From Escherichia coli (lineage in GTDB: Bacteria; Pseudomonadota; Gammaproteobacteria; Enterobacterales; Enterobacteriaceae), in NCBI RefSeq assembly GCF_003018255.1, contig NZ_CP027441.1: DNA of 64,000 nt. One strand, given 5' to 3'. Each line of letters starts with the position of its first letter. Within the stretch, counting starts at the first letter, position 1. Of the stretch, positions 6,001-15,000 are shown piece after piece. Position numbers: made by a program.

Positions 6001-9000
6001 AGGATGCCACGCTCTGCCAGCATGTTGAGTGCTGCCAGTCGGCGACCACCTGCGGCGACACCGTAACGGTCACCAGGCAGGGTATGCACGACCAGATTCT
6101 GCAACAGGCCAACGCCCTTAATGGACTCCGCCAGTTCGCTGACGGACTCCGCAGAATACGGCACCGTGCGCACATTCAGCGGTGATTTAATCAGCGAGGC
6201 CAGCGGCACGCTCACTTCCTCCGTCTGCGCCAGCAGAGCAGTCAGGACAGTTTCCTGCGTTTTTGCAGGTTTACGGCTTGCTTTACGGGTAGATTTTGGT
6301 TCAAACTTTGTTACTGACATGACTATCCCCTTATTGTGTAGTTAATGTCTGCCGGACGCGTTCCCGTCCGGCACCTCTCTTACTTAAGAATGCCGAAATC
6401 CCTGATGACATGGTTCATCCAGTACCCGGCACCGTCCTCAAAATTCCAGGTACGCCAGACCAGGCCACTGTTATTGCGGACAACCAGGCGAAAATGCGTT
6501 CCCTGCTCATCCTCGATAAAGACGTTCCGGTACTGTGCGGCAACGGCTTCCGCCTGTTCGCGGGTAAAGGAGCCGTCCGGCAGCCCCTGAAGTATTCTGA
6601 AATATTCGCTCATCCTCATCTCTCCGGTGATGCCCCGCGCAGGGCGGTTATCACAGTCAGGCCAGTCAGAACGGGATATCGTCTGAATACCCGTAATCCT
6701 CCCCCTCCGGCGGTTGCGGCTGAGGCTGAGGCTCGGGCTGCGCGGCCTTACGTCCACGGCCTTTCGTTTTCGCGCCACTTTTTTTCGTCGCGTCAGCACT
6801 CTGTGGCTGCCCATTCTGCTGAGGCTGCGGTTGTGCCTGAGCGTTCTGCTGTGGTGCACTCCCCAGCATCTGCATGGTGCCCGTGGTCTTAACAAGAATT
6901 TCAGTGACGTAACGGGTGATACCGTTATCTTCCCAGCTACGGGTTCGGAGTTGCCCCTCGATATAGACCTGCGCGCCCTTGCGCAGATATTCACCTGCCA
7001 CTTCCGCGAGCTTGCCGAACAGCACCACGCGGTGCCATTCCGTCTGCTCCCGCATCTCCCCCGTCTGTTTGTCGCGCCAGGTTTCTGACGTGGCCACCTG
7101 CAGGTTTGCCACTGCGCCCCCGTTGGGGATGTAACGGACTTCCGGATCTTTACCCAGACGACCAACCACGATGACCTTGTTGATACCACGTGCACTCATA
7201 AGAACCTCCTGACTGAAAGATGTGAGATAAACCGGATACCGGCGACGGGACGTTCATGTGCCCCTTCAGAGGAGCGAAAGCTCCTCCTGCCGTCCACTTC
7301 ACAGGGGTTTCTCCCCGCAGTGGACCTTTCCGATGGGGGCCCGTTTACCGCCTCACGGGACAGCTGTCCGGGGGCGGACGCAAAATTTTTTGCCGGGTTC
7401 ATGGCTAAAAATTTTGTGGCCGGTGCATCTCACCCTGGACAGATGGAACGGGAGGGGGTTACGTCTGCCCCCCGGAAAGTCCACAGCGGGAAACAGGCCG
7501 CAGAGGTGGCTGCAGGAGGGAGGACTGCTGCGCCATCAGGCGCAGTTTCCTCACACACCGTCAGGTGTGCAGGGAGCGCAGGTCACGGCGCGACTGAGGC
7601 GGCGCGACCGGAACGGTCGCTGCAAGCCCGGTTTTTCACGCATCGGACCGTAGCGGCAGCCCGAAACCGCGCCAGCGGGTTCGGCGGAGACTGGCGGGTG
7701 CGCCAGCAGCTGCCTGTCGGAGTCGGGCCTGACGACCGGATGCCGCCAGGCAGCCGGGAGCCGAAGGGGCGCATGTGTAAGAAGGTTCTTTAACGACAGG
7801 TCTGTAACAGGTACTTCCTGAAACAACGCCTGTCACCAACAGGAAGGGTAACGGGCGACGCGCCAGCGTGGCCCGCTTCCCTTCCGGCAGGCGCCAGCCT
7901 GCCAGGGGTTTTCGCGCGGGCTGACAGGCGGCCTCCACCGCCTGCCCTGTATCACCTGTGCCTGCTGCCCTGAAGGATGTAGTGGCCACCGAGGAAAACC
8001 GCCTGCTGATTCGCCACAAAATCACAGATTTCATCAACAATCTGCGCGGTGGTGAGCGGTTTCTGCCCCATTTCACGACGCAGCGCATTAATCACGGCCC
8101 TGTAATTACGCAGAATTTCGCGGGTTTCCGTGCTGATATTCATTACCCGTTCTCCCCGTCCAGCGCCTGACGCATCACCCGCATAATCTCACGTTCTTCC
8201 CTGACAAATGCGTCACCGTCGCCCCCGTTCTCGCTCCCTACAGCATGGAGGCGATAAATTTCACTACCAGCCATCACCATCACTTTTTCCAGCAGCACCG
8301 CAGGAACTGTTACAAGACGGTTTACGCGCTTTTCCTCCATCAGTTCACGAACAACGTCGTGAACAATGCTGACATCAGCACCATGCTCAAAGGCATCGTC
8401 CAGCCGCTGCATGACGGTTTCCAGCTCATCGTCTGTCAGACTCCAGTCCTGGGCTATGTGACGCACATCCCCACGGGTCAGCACCACGGCAAAAACGCAT
8501 TCACTGTCCGGCACGTCTGTATCCAGCACTTCGCGGATAATTTCTTTAACAGTACAGTACATGTTCTCGTCTCCTTTACAGGGGCGGCATTGCCGCCCCG
8601 TCCGTTAATCAGTCCAGTGCCGCGTAAATCGCGTTGCATTCGGGGTGAAATTCGATGTGGCTCCACAACTGCGCATCGCGCATCCGGTAAAGGTGTGTCT
8701 GTCCCGCATCCCCGCTGTCGTGGTACAGCCACAACTGGCGGTTAATCACAAGGGAAGTCAGGATGATACCTGCGGCATCAGCACTCACAGTGCGGTCAAA
8801 CCAGTTTTCACCGTTGACCAGATGAAAACGGTCGCCATCCGGCATCATGTAACCGCCACCGTCCGGCAGGCGGATGAAATGCCAGAAGCCTCCCTGATAT
8901 TCCGGCATCATTTTTTGCGCCAGCGCGTACACATACGCCTCGGCATACAGAAAATCGTTGCCAAACAGGTAAGGCAGAAAGGAGAGACGGTCACACTCTT

Positions 9001-12000: not shown

Positions 12001-15000
12001 TTCATCCGCCATAATGCGCCACCTTGTCGACTATCCACGCAGGTCCGGTGACTTCCGGCAGCTCATCGTCATCTGTCGGGGAAGACCATTCCAGCTCCCC
12101 CCACAGCACATCAACGAGCTCTCCGCGCTCATACAACTGCCAGCCACAGAAATCACAGCCCTGTTCGGCATACCAGTGCTCCAGCGTGCAGCTGAAACGG
12201 CGGCTTAATTCTGCAACAACGTCGCTTTCCGGCTGACACCACGGCGTGTCGAAATCCACCTGAATGAAGTTTTCCCCCTGACTGCTGATATTCAGGTCAT
12301 ACCCACAAGGCCACTTCACGCCATACCGTTCTGTATACCAGTGATATGCAGAAGGAACACCGTTCAGAACACCACCGTTGAAGCCATTCACTTCAACATC
12401 CAGGCGGGTCGGCAGAACCGTCAGCAGGTCAAACGGCATGGTTTTTTCCGGCAGTACGTTGTCACACAGACGGTTCCACCACACCGATACATCCTCGTTA
12501 CTCCAGAAGCCACACCAGTCACCTCTTTTTGCGGTGAAAAGTACGGTGATGGTATCCCTGACATCGTCCGGTAATCCTTCCCAGCGACGCTGTCCAGTAC
12601 CGCTCTGCAGCCAGAGTTCATGCAGCATCAGGCAGTTTTGTTCATCCAGCAGTACACCGTTCTGCAGGTGTGTCAGCCAGCGGGTGAACGCGATATTCTC
12701 CGGCGATACAACGCCACGCCCGGCAGCCGTCAGTCCGGGGCATGGTTCAAACCGCACATCTTCAGTGGTCTGCAGAAGTCCGGCACTTCCGGCCAGAAAC
12801 AGCTGAATACCTTCATTTATGGCGCGGCGATAAAACGGTGTGACGGCACCACTGGCCAGTCGTTTAATCTCAGCGATCTGTGCCAGTTCACCAGAAAAAT
12901 GCATACGGTTACTGCACCAGTTTGGCATGGGAATTCTCCTCTCACATGCGGCCTCCATCAGGCCGTGCCGGCACGTTAACCGGGCGACCGCATACGAATG
13001 CAGGTGCGGCCCCGAAGCCGCAGCGCGTGGAGGAGGAACGACGAAACGTGACCGGGTGAGGAGGCCGGCGACAGCGACACACTTGCATCGGATGCAGCCC
13101 GGTTAACGTGCCAGCACGGCCTGGGTAACCAGGTATTTTGTCCACAGAACCGTGCACAAAATGCTGTGGATAAGCTGGACACAGCACTCCACAGCAGGCA
13201 TACAGCCACACCCTCAGAGAATTGATCGTTTTTTAGTCAGAACAATGACATTTGACTGTGTGCGGATTCAGTTATTAGAACACTGTATATGCATACAGCA
13301 AAAAGAGAAGGGAGATGAGAACATGATCCGCATTGAAATTCTTTTCGACCGCCAGAGCACAAAAAACCTCAAATCAGGCACACTTCAGGCGCTACAGAAT
13401 GAAATCGAACAACGTCTGAAACCACACTACCCGGAAATCTGGCTGCGTATAGACCAGGGCAGCGCCCCGTCTCTATCTGTCACAGGAGCCCGCAACGACA
13501 AGGATAAAGAACGTATCCTGTCTCTGCTGGAAGAAATCTGGCAGGACGACAGCTGGCTGCCTGCAGCATGAGTACCGTTTATCACCGTCCGGCTGACCCT
13601 TCAGGCGATGACAGTTACGTGCGACCGTTGTTTGCCGATCGTTGCCAGGCCGGTTTTCCTTCGCCTGCCACGGATTATGCTGAGCAGGAACTGGATCTGA
13701 ACAGCTATTGCATCAGCAGACCTGCAGCCACCTTCTTTCTGCGCGCCAGCGGTGAATCGATGAACCAGGCTGGCGTGCAGAATGGTGATCTGCTGGTAGT
13801 GGACAGGGCCGAAAAACCACAACACGGGGACATCGTTATCGCTGAGATCGACGGTGAGTTCACCGTCAAACGACTGCGGTTGCGCCCACGCCCGGCACTG
13901 GAGCCGGTTTCAGACAGCCCGGAGTTCCGCACACTGTATCCGGAAAACATCTGTATTTTTGGTGTTGTCACTCACGTGATCACAGGACGCGGGAGTTACG
14001 CTGATGTTTGCACTGGCTGATATCAACAGTTTCTACGCCTCATGTGAAAAAGTTTTCCGCCCGGACCTTCGCAACGAACCGGTCATCGTACTCAGCAATA
14101 ACGATGGCTGTGTGATCGCGCGCAGCCCGGAGGCAAAAGCCCTTGGCATCAGAATGGGGCAGCCCAGGTTTCAGGTGAGACAAATGCGCCTGGAGAAGAA
14201 AATACATGTATTTTCCAGCAATTATGCGCTGTACCACAGCATGAGCCAACGGGTTATGGCTGTTCTGGAGTCGCTTTCTCCCGCAGTTGAGCCCTACTCA
14301 ATTGATGAAATGTTCATTGATTTGCGGGGGATAAATCATTGCATCTCTCCGGAGGTTTTTGGTCATCAGCTCAGGGAACTGGTAAATAGCTGGACAGGAC
14401 TCACCATGGGGGTGGGCATTGCGCCTACAAAAACACTGGCTAAAAGTGCACAGTGGGCAACAAAGCAATGGCCACAGTTTTCCGGTGTGGTCGCGCTGAC
14501 GGCAGAAAACCGTAATCGGATCTTGAAGCTACTGGGGCTGCAGCCAGTTGGTGAGGTCTGGGGAGTAGGACGCAGACTGACGGAAAAGCTGAATGCGCTG
14601 GGTATTAACACAGCACTGCAACTGGCGCAGGCTAACACGGCATTCATCCGGAAAAACTTCAGCATCATTCTTGAGCGTACGGTACGCGAACTCAACGGCG
14701 AGTCCTGCATATCCCTGGAAGAAGCACCACCGGCAAAACAGCAGATTGTCTGTAGTCGCAGTTTTGGTGAACGAATCACAGACAAAAATGCCATGCACCA
14801 GGCTGTTGTTCAGTATGCAGAGCGGGCCGCTGAGAAACTACGTGGGGAGCGTCAGTATTGTCGGCAGGTGACGACATTTGTACGGACATCCCCCTTTGCA
14901 GTAAAAGAACCCTGTTACAGCAATGCCGCTGTGGAAAAGCTTTCATTGCCACACAGGACAGCCGGGACATTATTGCCGCCGCATGCAGAGCCTTAAACCA

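Follow-up and report, generated by a model that had tools for sequence, protein, structure and literature searches.

Six conserved leading-region genes of an Escherichia coli plasmid belong to catalogued families with a plausible anti-defence role and lie among putative single-strand promoters

The sequence analysed here, hereafter the window, is a 64,000-nucleotide stretch of the E. coli contig NZ_CP027441.1. Its segment 7200–13330 is part of a plasmid leading region, with ssb at one border and the divergent impCAB genes at the other. Six open reading frames (ORFs) lie between these borders, all on the minus strand and at the coordinates given by a sequence-only reading that had proposed them as undescribed anti-defence candidates. 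Annotation and Pfam/NCBIfam searches bore out the neighbours that it had named (ardA, klcA/ardB, psiB, ssb and an orphan methyltransferase) and added psiA, all of them minus-strand genes. The segment contains the following features:

7200–7951, plus strand: putative class 1 (Frpo/ssi-type) single-strand promoter region ahead of ssb, by homology to pESBL
7952–8143, minus strand: 63-aa basic protein of the YffA/AreA family (Hp13, gene 900), sharing 1 nt with the DUF1380a stop
8143–8562, minus strand: DUF1380 paralogue a (YubJ/YcjA), 139 aa, pI 4.5, net charge -15; Pfam PF07128 (Hp12, gene 910)
8609–9034, minus strand: KlcA/ArdB antirestriction protein, Pfam Antirestrict 2.0e-26, first in the putative ssp2 operon
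9035–9447, plus strand: putative class 2 single-strand promoter of klcA (ssp2/Frpo3), from its homology with F and pESBL
9425–9443, minus strand: intrinsic terminator closing the putative ssp3 operon, GGCGGGGAAAATCCCCGCC then TTTTT, 5 nt past the YchA stop
9448–10218, minus strand: YchA/YubG/NgrC-family protein, 256 aa, pI 5.1 (Hp11), last in the putative ssp3 operon
10263–10697, minus strand: DUF1380 paralogue b (YubF/YcgB), 144 aa, pI 4.6; Pfam PF07128 (Hp10, gene 940)
10711–10932, minus strand: probable YubE-family protein, 73 aa, acidic; phrog_4830 (Hp9, gene 950 of pMS7163B)
10933–11616, minus strand: orphan single-strand-specific adenine methyltransferase (M.EcoGIX homologue), NCBIfam NF010253 and Pfam N6_N4_Mtase, first in the putative ssp3 operon
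11617–12001, plus strand: putative class 3 single-strand promoter region (ssp3) ahead of the M.EcoGIX-type methylase, by homology to pESBL and F
12002–12928, minus strand: DUF1281/YubB/Api92-like protein, 308 aa, pI 4.5; Pfam PF06924 and PF18406 (Hp8 of pESBL, gene 010 of pMS7163B)
12959–13127, plus (transferred) strand: long imperfect hairpin lying 30 nt ahead of the DUF1281 start, a candidate class-2-like single-strand DNA promoter

The window is 99.9% identical to an IncFIB/IncI-gamma/K1 plasmid, and in NZ_CP027451.1 (99.9% identical) all annotated coding sequences from the window start to 12928 are on the minus strand. Because nikA/mobA, on the oriT side, also lie ~3.3 kb beyond the window start, the plus strand is the transferred strand and its low-coordinate end enters the recipient first, as had been supposed. 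The six ORFs are templated by this strand. At the far border, impCAB starts at 13323 on the plus strand, diverging from the six-ORF run, behind a perfect LexA box at 13283–13298. Segment 7200–13330 forms the half of the canonical IncI/IncF leading region that lies farther from oriT, and is a standard part of IncI and IncF resistance plasmids, thousands of which carry it: the segment is colinear with pESBL (93.2% identical over 6131 nt) and with F (92.5%). In the window herB, a ParB-like gene, is broken.

All six ORFs are genuine protein genes of plasmid-restricted families under purifying selection, since five of them give dN/dS values of 0.09–0.28 against F; the ORF overlying ssp3 gives 0.87. 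All six carry Shine-Dalgarno sites, in keeping with the strong ribosome-binding sites claimed for them, whereas the translational coupling claimed alongside extends to only part of the set (10933/10932 and 8143). In other Enterobacterales plasmids the order umuDC, DUF1281, methylase-YubE-DUF1380-YchA, then klcA or ardA is kept at 25–47% protein identity. The methylase-YubE-DUF1380-YchA order recurs in three of these loci (L006, L008 and L010), with YchA 39–44% identical; L007 has the methylase-YubE arrangement without DUF1380, and in L004 and L011 YchA homologues stand beside ardA or klcA without a methylase.

Several of the ORFs that had been described as belonging to no nameable family do have one. 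Two of the ten scanned proteins match DUF1380 (PF07128) at E <= 0.001 (8143–8562 and 10263–10697; best 3.4e-51), and these paralogues are 28% identical to each other. ORF 12002–12928 matches DUF1281 (PF06924, 1.8e-49) and DUF1281_C (PF18406, 9.4e-15). Aligned end to end, the 73-aa ORF shares 41–64% identity with four proteins that have a precomputed match to PF27407 (YubE) and that directly follow methylases in L006, L007, L008 and L010. The 63-aa ORF matched no family in Pfam, NCBIfam or PHROGs, and the PHROGs matches obtained for the six ORFs are to families of unknown function only.

A segment of 170–750 nt that folds strongly as single-stranded DNA (z = -5.3 to -9.5) precedes each gene block, and no canonical double-strand sigma-70 site was found in the 6.2 kb. 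With 89–98% identity to mapped elements of pESBL and F, these structured segments are probably single-strand promoters. Six induced operons with starts mapped by 5' RACE have been reported in pESBL, and the klcA and methylase operons are induced in F (Wen et al. NAR 2025).

The putative ssp3 segment (z = -5.8) is 97.7% identical to the pESBL sequence directly upstream of M.EcoGIX, where a class 3 promoter was mapped by 5'-RACE (Wen et al. NAR 2025); its identity to F is 95.6%. A PGAP "hypothetical" ORF within it (11693–11998), the one with dN/dS 0.87 against F, is probably no gene. Downstream, ssp3 would drive the methylase, YubE, DUF1380b and YchA up to the terminator, whose 8-bp stem contains 7 GC pairs. 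The methylase (NF010253, 6.7e-148) is 98.7% identical to pESBL M.EcoGIX, an enzyme reported as weak and non-specific that protects against EcoGIII and EcoRI restriction. The YubE ATG abuts the methylase TAA stop, coupling the two genes, and the ORF (dN/dS 0.28) has a pMS7163B homologue whose clean deletion (950) leaves conjugation at the wild-type level. DUF1380b (phrog_9024, 2.3e-72; dN/dS 0.23) occurs at >=80% identity in at least 5000 plasmid records. Its pMS7163B homologue, gene 940, is near-silent in donors (Ct ~31 vs ~24 for repA), and overexpressing genes 940 and 930 in cis abolished transfer and lowered competitiveness. YchA gives a confident structure model (pLDDT 91) for which no informative structural relative turned up, and its hhalign probability against ArdA is 0.1%. 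An unrelated 133-aa gene takes its place in pMS7163B.

The putative ssp2 segment shares 90% of its sequence with F ssp2 and 89% with the pESBL klcA promoter, folds with z = -5.25, carries a core motif at 9258–9300 and is a 95% repeat of a copy upstream of ardA (2307–2606). In F, ssp2 additionally blocks complementary-strand synthesis, a roadblock that UvrD resolves; deleting ssp2 there lowered transfer into non-isogenic hosts between 21-fold and below detection, a phenotype its authors credit mainly to ArdB. By homology, ssp2 would drive KlcA/ArdB (97% identical to the F copy), DUF1380a and the 63-aa ORF. DUF1380a has a dN/dS of 0.21; modelling of DUF1380 stayed at low confidence (pLDDT 53). 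Insertion in its pMS7163B homologue (910::Cm) lowered transfer from a TOP10 (hsdRMS-deleted) donor, not from MG1655, and ardB::Cm has a donor-specific conjugation defect of the same pattern. As described in the accessible part of the published text, 910::Cm is neither complemented nor a clean deletion, and its phenotype could stem from an influence of the cassette on gene 900 or ardB next to it. The 63-aa ORF, coupled to DUF1380a through the overlap at 8143, has the lowest dN/dS of the set (0.09); in divergent plasmids, homologues 48–59% identical follow klcA (L006) or ardA (L004/L005) at a short distance, and gene 900 of pMS7163B has a TraDIS log2FC of 0.5. The putative class 1 region on the ssb side (z = -9.5) matches the sequence ahead of ssb in pESBL at 90.8% identity and has a second copy at 1111–1746. 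A PGAP "hypothetical" ORF inside the frame 7636–8088 is probably spurious; the overlapping frame is Arg/Pro-rich, with pI 11.9 and no family match.

DUF1281 sits upstream of both operons and outside all six induced pESBL operons (Wen et al. NAR 2025). Its start at 12928 has a good Shine-Dalgarno site (GAGAGGAGAATTCCC-ATG), unlike the longer start at 12958. The protein is 97% identical to the pESBL copy; the gene is a frameshifted pseudogene in F, and gene 010 of pMS7163B shows no conjugation phenotype (TraDIS log2FC 0.27). The sequence ahead of it (12929–13330) folds with z = -8.9, and the distal arm of the hairpin at 12959–13127 carries a 38-nt motif, TTGCAT-N15-TAACGT-N6-GCACGGC, at 13083–13120 on the transferred strand only. 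The class-2 promoters of klcA and ardA share this motif, which also precedes DUF1281 in pESBL, F, L010 and L011 (chance expectation 0.0 matches). Despite the common motif, the hairpin aligns poorly overall with class 2 promoters. It is kept in L011 (z = -4.3) and weak in L010 (z = -1.65). A scan of the hairpin for canonical -35/-10 pairs found none.

An anti-defence role for the six ORFs is plausible. None of them matched known anti-defence families (ArdA, KlcA/ArdB, Ocr-type mimics, anti-CRISPRs) in Pfam, NCBIfam or PADLOC, and in PDB sequence and profile searches Api92 was the sole match, with fold comparison covering YchA only. The profile and structure searches that the sequence-only reading had suggested supplied names for several ORFs and tied none of the six to anti-defence families or folds already known. 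Published transposon data indicate that none of the six homologues is required for maintenance or transfer in isogenic K-12 matings. Experimental support is indirect and concerns one ORF, DUF1380a, through the ardB-like defect of the 910 mutant. A neighbouring leading-region "unknown", yfjB/herB, reprograms host transcription and is not an anti-defence gene, so position alone does not prove function.

The reading we favour, with some confidence, is that this leading-region block consists of single-strand-promoter operons encoding short-lived establishment factors. Given single-strand promoters on these segments, the genes would be expressed in a short pulse after entry into the recipient, for as long as the plasmid is single-stranded, and would shut down on its conversion to double-stranded DNA; their products would act in the recipient. 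The most likely specific role of DUF1380a would be to aid KlcA/ArdB in blunting type I restriction, and the methylase-linked trio of YubE, DUF1380b and YchA may broaden or adjust the protection given to the incoming strand. HerB suggests another role for such factors, namely altering host physiology (transcription, metabolism or SOS) or cutting the cost of acquisition instead of inhibiting defences. The six ORFs' lack of likeness to known anti-defence proteins is consistent with this, as is the harm that forced 930/940 expression does to plasmid competitiveness and transfer; yet vector-induced 930/940 gave no host growth phenotype, the 910 phenotype varies with the EcoKI modification status of the donor, and the ORFs are probably co-transcribed with a protective methylase and KlcA/ArdB. 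We regard this alternative as unlikely, if still a serious one.

Less probable again is that the trio serves as accessory factors for incoming-strand processing, through methylase targeting or stimulation, SSB interaction or the timing of complementary-strand synthesis. The tight methylase-YubE coupling, the order kept in three divergent loci and the reported weakness of M.EcoGIX would suit such a role, but YchA occurs apart from the methylase, DUF1380 is absent from L007, pMS7163B replaces YchA and the 950 deletion has no phenotype. Synthesis of the proteins in the donor, followed by their export through the type IV secretion system, is very improbable. The F-like plasmid pED208 does translocate maintenance and leading-region proteins (PsiB, SSB, PsiA and ParB2); however, 930/940 donor transcripts are roughly 100-fold under repA, the operons have no recognisable double-strand promoters, and the published text available to us reports no translocation of these families. 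That some ORFs are chance or decaying frames riding with the promoters is scarcely credible and already largely refuted: the F copy of DUF1281 is frameshifted and the two PGAP "hypothetical" ORFs look spurious, but the dN/dS values, the Shine-Dalgarno sites, conservation with synteny in other genera (down to 25–48% identity) and the confident YchA fold all speak against it.

The anti-defence context of this leading region, as the sequence-only reading had it, fits the leading-region island defined by Samuel et al. (Nature 2024; PMC11541004). Like that island, the region is bordered by oriT and a divergent umuDC-like operon (here impCAB), holds ArdA, KlcA, PsiA/B, SSB and an orphan methylase templated by the T-strand, and has segments homologous to mapped Frpo/ssi-type single-strand promoters; it is an instance of the island with no substantive difference, apart from its broken herB. 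The ORFs are not undescribed. YffA/AreA, YcjA/YubJ, YchA/YubG, YcgB/YubF DUF1380, YfcA and YubB DUF1281 appear in Supplementary Table 1 of that study, among the 100 families most enriched in leading regions, as uncharacterised and putatively anti-defence, and homologues have been mutagenised as Hp8–Hp13 of pESBL and genes 010 and 900–950 of pMS7163B. The six genes are real, conserved and already catalogued as unexplained candidate anti-defence genes.

Individual genes compare in different ways with characterised proteins. DUF1380a lies directly downstream of klcA, is probably co-transcribed with it, is acidic and shares the ardB-type donor-specific defect when mutated in pMS7163B, but has no sequence relation to KlcA/ArdB: Pfam assigns Antirestrict to 8609–9034 and only DUF1380 to DUF1380a. 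The DUF1281 protein shares two Pfam domains with Api92 of a Yersinia pseudotuberculosis pathogenicity island (PDB 2IJR, E = 3.3e-51, 272 residues, 13–284). Because no function is assigned to Api92 itself, this match gives a fold name and not a mechanism.

Gene order in the leading regions of pESBL-EA11 and F is the same as in this segment, with 93% of nucleotides identical; for the promoter segments of classes 1, 2 and 3 mapped there, identity is 89–98% (Wen et al. NAR 2025; Fraikin et al. 2026 preprint; Shaw et al. preprint). The DUF1281-upstream hairpin with its class-2 core motif differs in standing outside the mapped set: none of the six promoters named for pESBL lies there (Wen et al. NAR 2025), and a promoter for "the next cluster" was sought and not found (Shaw et al. 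preprint). This class-2-like single-strand hairpin, a candidate promoter for DUF1281, is the small new element that the window adds.

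The six open reading frames (ORFs) that the sequence-only reading had singled out between ssb and impCAB are borne out as translationally equipped minus-strand genes. All six carry a Shine-Dalgarno sequence 5-10 nt 5' of the ATG, and the DUF1281 start with a good Shine-Dalgarno is 12928, as originally chosen. The start of the 73-aa ORF abuts the stop of the methylase gene (an M.EcoGIX-type orphan methyltransferase, MTase), and one base is shared by the DUF1380a stop and the 63-aa ORF start. Names in the comparison plasmids pESBL-EA11 (pESBL; Hp) and pMS7163B (gene) follow each entry.

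Six leading-region ORFs
7952-8143, minus: 63-aa ORF, no family match; Hp13; gene 900
8143-8562, minus: DUF1380a, 139 aa, DUF1380 (PF07128), YubJ/YcjA; Hp12; gene 910
9448-10218, minus: YchA/YubG/NgrC, 256 aa; Hp11
10263-10697, minus: DUF1380b, 144 aa, DUF1380 (PF07128), YubF/YcgB; Hp10; gene 940
10711-10932, minus: 73-aa ORF, homologous to PF27407 YubE members; Hp9; gene 950
12002-12928, minus: DUF1281 protein, 308 aa, DUF1281 plus DUF1281_C, YubB; Hp8; gene 010

The proposed direction of entry also holds. Window positions 1-15000 match E. coli plasmid NZ_CP027451.1 (99.9% identity), which types as IncFIB plus IncI-gamma/K1, MOBP and MPF_I. All its annotated CDSs from the window start to 12928 share the strand of the ORFs, and nikA/mobA, hence oriT, lies ~3.3 kb outside the window start. 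The plus strand is therefore the transferred strand (T-strand), with the low-coordinate end first in.

The divergent imp genes lie at 13323-14996 (plus), with a perfect LexA box, CTGTATATGCATACAG, ahead of impC at 13283-13298 (plus). The impB-like ORF at 14004-14996 (plus) encodes 330 aa, compared with 423-426 aa in homologues from pESBL and the divergent plasmid loci L006 and L010, and GC content falls sharply from ~15000; impB may therefore have been truncated by insertion or at a recombination junction. On the other side, yfjB/herB (ParB-like; 652 aa in F) is broken at 4555-6320 (minus): residues 1-351 are in frame at 6320-5262, residues 414-652 are in another frame at 5271-4555, and ~60 residues are absent. 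HerB, a recently described host-reprogramming factor, is probably absent from this plasmid.

The block is conserved in IncF/IncI leading regions, as the sequence-only reading had suggested checking. The F plasmid copy is colinear at 92.5% nucleotide identity, and pESBL matches at 93.2% over 6131 nt with identical gene order (impCAB / DUF1281 / MTase / 73 aa / DUF1380 / YchA / klcA / DUF1380 / 63 aa / ssb onward). DUF1380b is present at 80% identity or more in at least 5000 PLSDB records, which among the matches listed are mostly from Escherichia, Salmonella, Klebsiella and Shigella. Even YchA homologues at 25-47% identity are leading-region located, and the 63-aa homologue, found in three divergent loci (L004, L005, L006), lies a short distance downstream of klcA or ardA.

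Gene order around YchA homologues in divergent plasmid loci
L004: YchA / ardA / 63-aa homologue
L006: umuDC / MTase-YubE-DUF1380-YchA / klcA, without DUF1281
L007: DUF1281 / MTase-YubE-YchA
L008: MTase-YubE-DUF1380-YchA / klcA, no umuDC within the examined stretch
L010: umuDC / DUF1281 / MTase-YubE-DUF1380-YchA / klcA
L011: umuDC / DUF1281 / YchA / klcA / ardA

Two further features stand out in these loci. A DNA polymerase III theta-like gene (HOT, PF06440) follows the klcA/ardA plus 63-aa block in L004 (6456-6713), L006 (6509-6763) and L011 (7127-7384), and its place in the window is taken by the ssb promoter. In L007, an inserted group II intron reverse transcriptase/maturase (2103-3827) lies directly ahead of the DUF1281 gene and appears to delete the DUF1281 start and upstream hairpin.

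Measured against F, dN/dS is 0.09 for the 63-aa ORF, 0.21 for DUF1380a, 0.18 for YchA, 0.23 for DUF1380b and 0.28 for YubE (the 73-aa ORF), the same range as klcA (0.09), the methylase (0.13) and ssb (0.26). The DUF1281 gene is frameshifted in F, and intact and 97% identical in pESBL. Two further ORFs called 'hypothetical' by PGAP in related records, 11693-11998 (dN/dS 0.87) and 7636-8088 (both minus), lie wholly over the hairpins of single-strand promoters; rich in Arg/Pro (pI 11.8-11.9) and without a family match, they are probably not genes.

Profile and structure searches yielded kinships and no characterised function. NCBIfam, PHROGs, PADLOC and Pfam scans of the six ORFs gave nothing beyond DUF or unknown-function families (five of six in such PHROGs families; no useful match in NCBIfam or PADLOC). 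The sole match in PDB sequence and profile searches was DUF1281 to the solved homologue Api92 (2IJR, E = 3.3e-51), which names no function for DUF1281, Api92's own role being undescribed; profiles of the four unmodelled families found no match among PDB sequences. The DUF1380 paralogues share 28% identity. The 73-aa ORF is 41-64% identical to proteins bearing PF27407 (YubE), a homology on which the link rests since the Pfam copy scanned lacks that entry, and the 63-aa ORF was placed in the YffA/AreA group by position in Samuel's table. Of the six proteins, only the 63-aa one is basic (pI 9.2), the other five being acidic (pI 4.5-5.3). Among the matches listed, two protein-database searches for diverse homologues gave relatives at least 78% identical, and plasmid tblastn was likewise filled by close relatives.

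YchA, from a narrow family (182 clusters at 50% identity, Enterobacterales only), gave a confident model from a 19-sequence alignment (pLDDT 90.9, pTM 0.83), in which a long helix links two alpha/beta modules. Its matches in AFDB50 were YchA/YubG/NgrC proteins only, with no useful match in BFVD. The DUF1380b AlphaFold model (13-sequence alignment, pLDDT 53) was unusable. Hidden kinship between YchA and DUF1281, YchA and ArdA, or DUF1380 and YchA was considered and rejected, profile-profile comparisons being negative for all three pairs.

How might these genes be expressed on entry? Canonical double-strand sigma-70 sites number zero in 7200-13400, against 2.1 expected by chance, and all four intergenic segments fold as single-stranded DNA far more strongly than shuffled controls.

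Plus-strand ssDNA folding against shuffled controls
7200-7951, plus: z = -9.5
9035-9447, plus: z = -5.25
11617-12001, plus: z = -5.8
12929-13330, plus: z = -8.9

By RNA-seq and 5' RACE, Wen et al. (PMC12672017) mapped six ssDNA promoters in pESBL, three of class 1 (ssi/Frpo), two of class 2 (klcA, ardA) and one of class 3 (M.EcoGIX), and they found the klcA and methylase operons of F induced too. Window segments are 89-98% identical to their pESBL counterparts; upstream of ardA, 2307-2606 repeats 9053-9352 at 95%, 7269-7914 is repeated at 1111-1746, and a strong terminator (9443-9425) lies downstream of YchA. No canonical -35/-10 boxes were found in the hairpins by a tool scan, nor by a looser scan of the class 2, class 3 and DUF1281 hairpins, and the promoter calls therefore rest on homology to mapped promoters. 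On that homology to pESBL and F, these genes are predicted to turn on during the first few minutes in a new cell. In F, the single-strand promoter ssp2, which precedes the klcA homologue, doubles as a replication roadblock resolved by UvrD, and its deletion lowers transfer into non-isogenic E. coli by 21-fold to undetectable (Fraikin et al., bioRxiv 10.64898/2026.01.09.698686). Shaw et al. found the element independently and named it Frpo3.

A strong T-strand hairpin at 12959-13127, 30 nt ahead of the DUF1281 gene and conserved in pESBL, F and two divergent plasmids, L011 among them, is not listed in the published maps (the six pESBL promoters of Wen et al.; Shaw et al.). Whole-length alignment with class 2 is unconvincing; the two have only the distal-arm motif in common. 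This motif, TTG-N3-N8-22-C[CG]GG-N0-2-TA-N3-T-N0-14-GCACGGC, is found on the T-strand only, with a background of 0.0 matches per shuffled 16 kb. In both the window and pESBL it precedes klcA, ardA and DUF1281; in F, the klcA homologue and DUF1281; in L010, DUF1281; in L011, DUF1281 and a YchA homologue; and in L004, a YchA homologue. The window copies are at 2512-2554 (ardA), 9258-9300 (klcA) and 13083-13120 (DUF1281), and the motif lies at 3280-3317 in L014 and 3664-3701 in L002. A seventh promoter is one possible role for the DUF1281-upstream hairpin; a site of priming or a roadblock is another.

Published genetics bear on function. Hp8-Hp13 are non-essential by TnSeq in pESBL, and gene equivalents in the I-complex plasmid pMS7163B (PMC10286972) were assigned from gene length, gene order and spacers of identical length.

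pMS7163B equivalents and reported results (PMC10286972)
010, 927 nt, DUF1281: log2FC 0.27
950, 222 nt, YubE: clean deletion, wild-type transfer
940, 435 nt, DUF1380b: donor Ct ~31, against ~24 for repA
910, 423 nt, DUF1380a: donor-specific defect
900, 192 nt, 63-aa ORF: log2FC 0.5

When 950 carried a promoter-bearing cassette, 930/940 transcripts rose ~1000-fold, transfer was abolished and competitiveness fell (PMC10286972). In that study, 910::Cm and ardB::Cm lowered transfer from a TOP10 (hsdRMS-deleted) donor and left an MG1655 donor unaffected; 910::Cm, in the available text a marked and uncomplemented insertion, is the sole functional hint among the six and points to type I restriction evasion. 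No functional studies were found in the literature under the names yubB-yubJ, yfc/yfd/yfe/yff, ychA, ngrC or Api92.

Position suggests an anti-defence role for the six ORFs. For a new kind of such factor, the KlcA-linked DUF1380 (YubJ/910) would be the strongest candidate, as a putative KlcA/ArdB partner in countering type I restriction. KlcA/ArdB is active in vivo and is not known to act in vitro. Orphan-fold YchA/YubG is the second candidate. By analogy with HerB, the six might instead be host-reprogramming factors, a rival to the anti-defence reading. That at least one family is a new anti-restriction or anti-defence factor, and that the DUF1281 hairpin is a seventh, class-2-like promoter overlooked in the pESBL and F maps, is together a doubtful proposition.

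The ORF genes are common to a large share of the IncF/IncI plasmids responsible for spreading ESBL genes and other resistance determinants in Enterobacterales; their functions, once known, would shed light on plasmid host range and could offer new ways to inhibit bacterial immunity. This stretch is one example of the leading-region anti-defence island described previously (PMC11541004), whose Supplementary Table 1 places these families among the largest that are leading-region-enriched and uncharacterised, at median positions 15-21 from oriT. The anti-defence context proposed by the sequence-only reading is therefore sound but already published, and its description of the candidates as undescribed falls away. 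As the field had already flagged these families as candidates, the window is an added instance of that island rather than a discovery.
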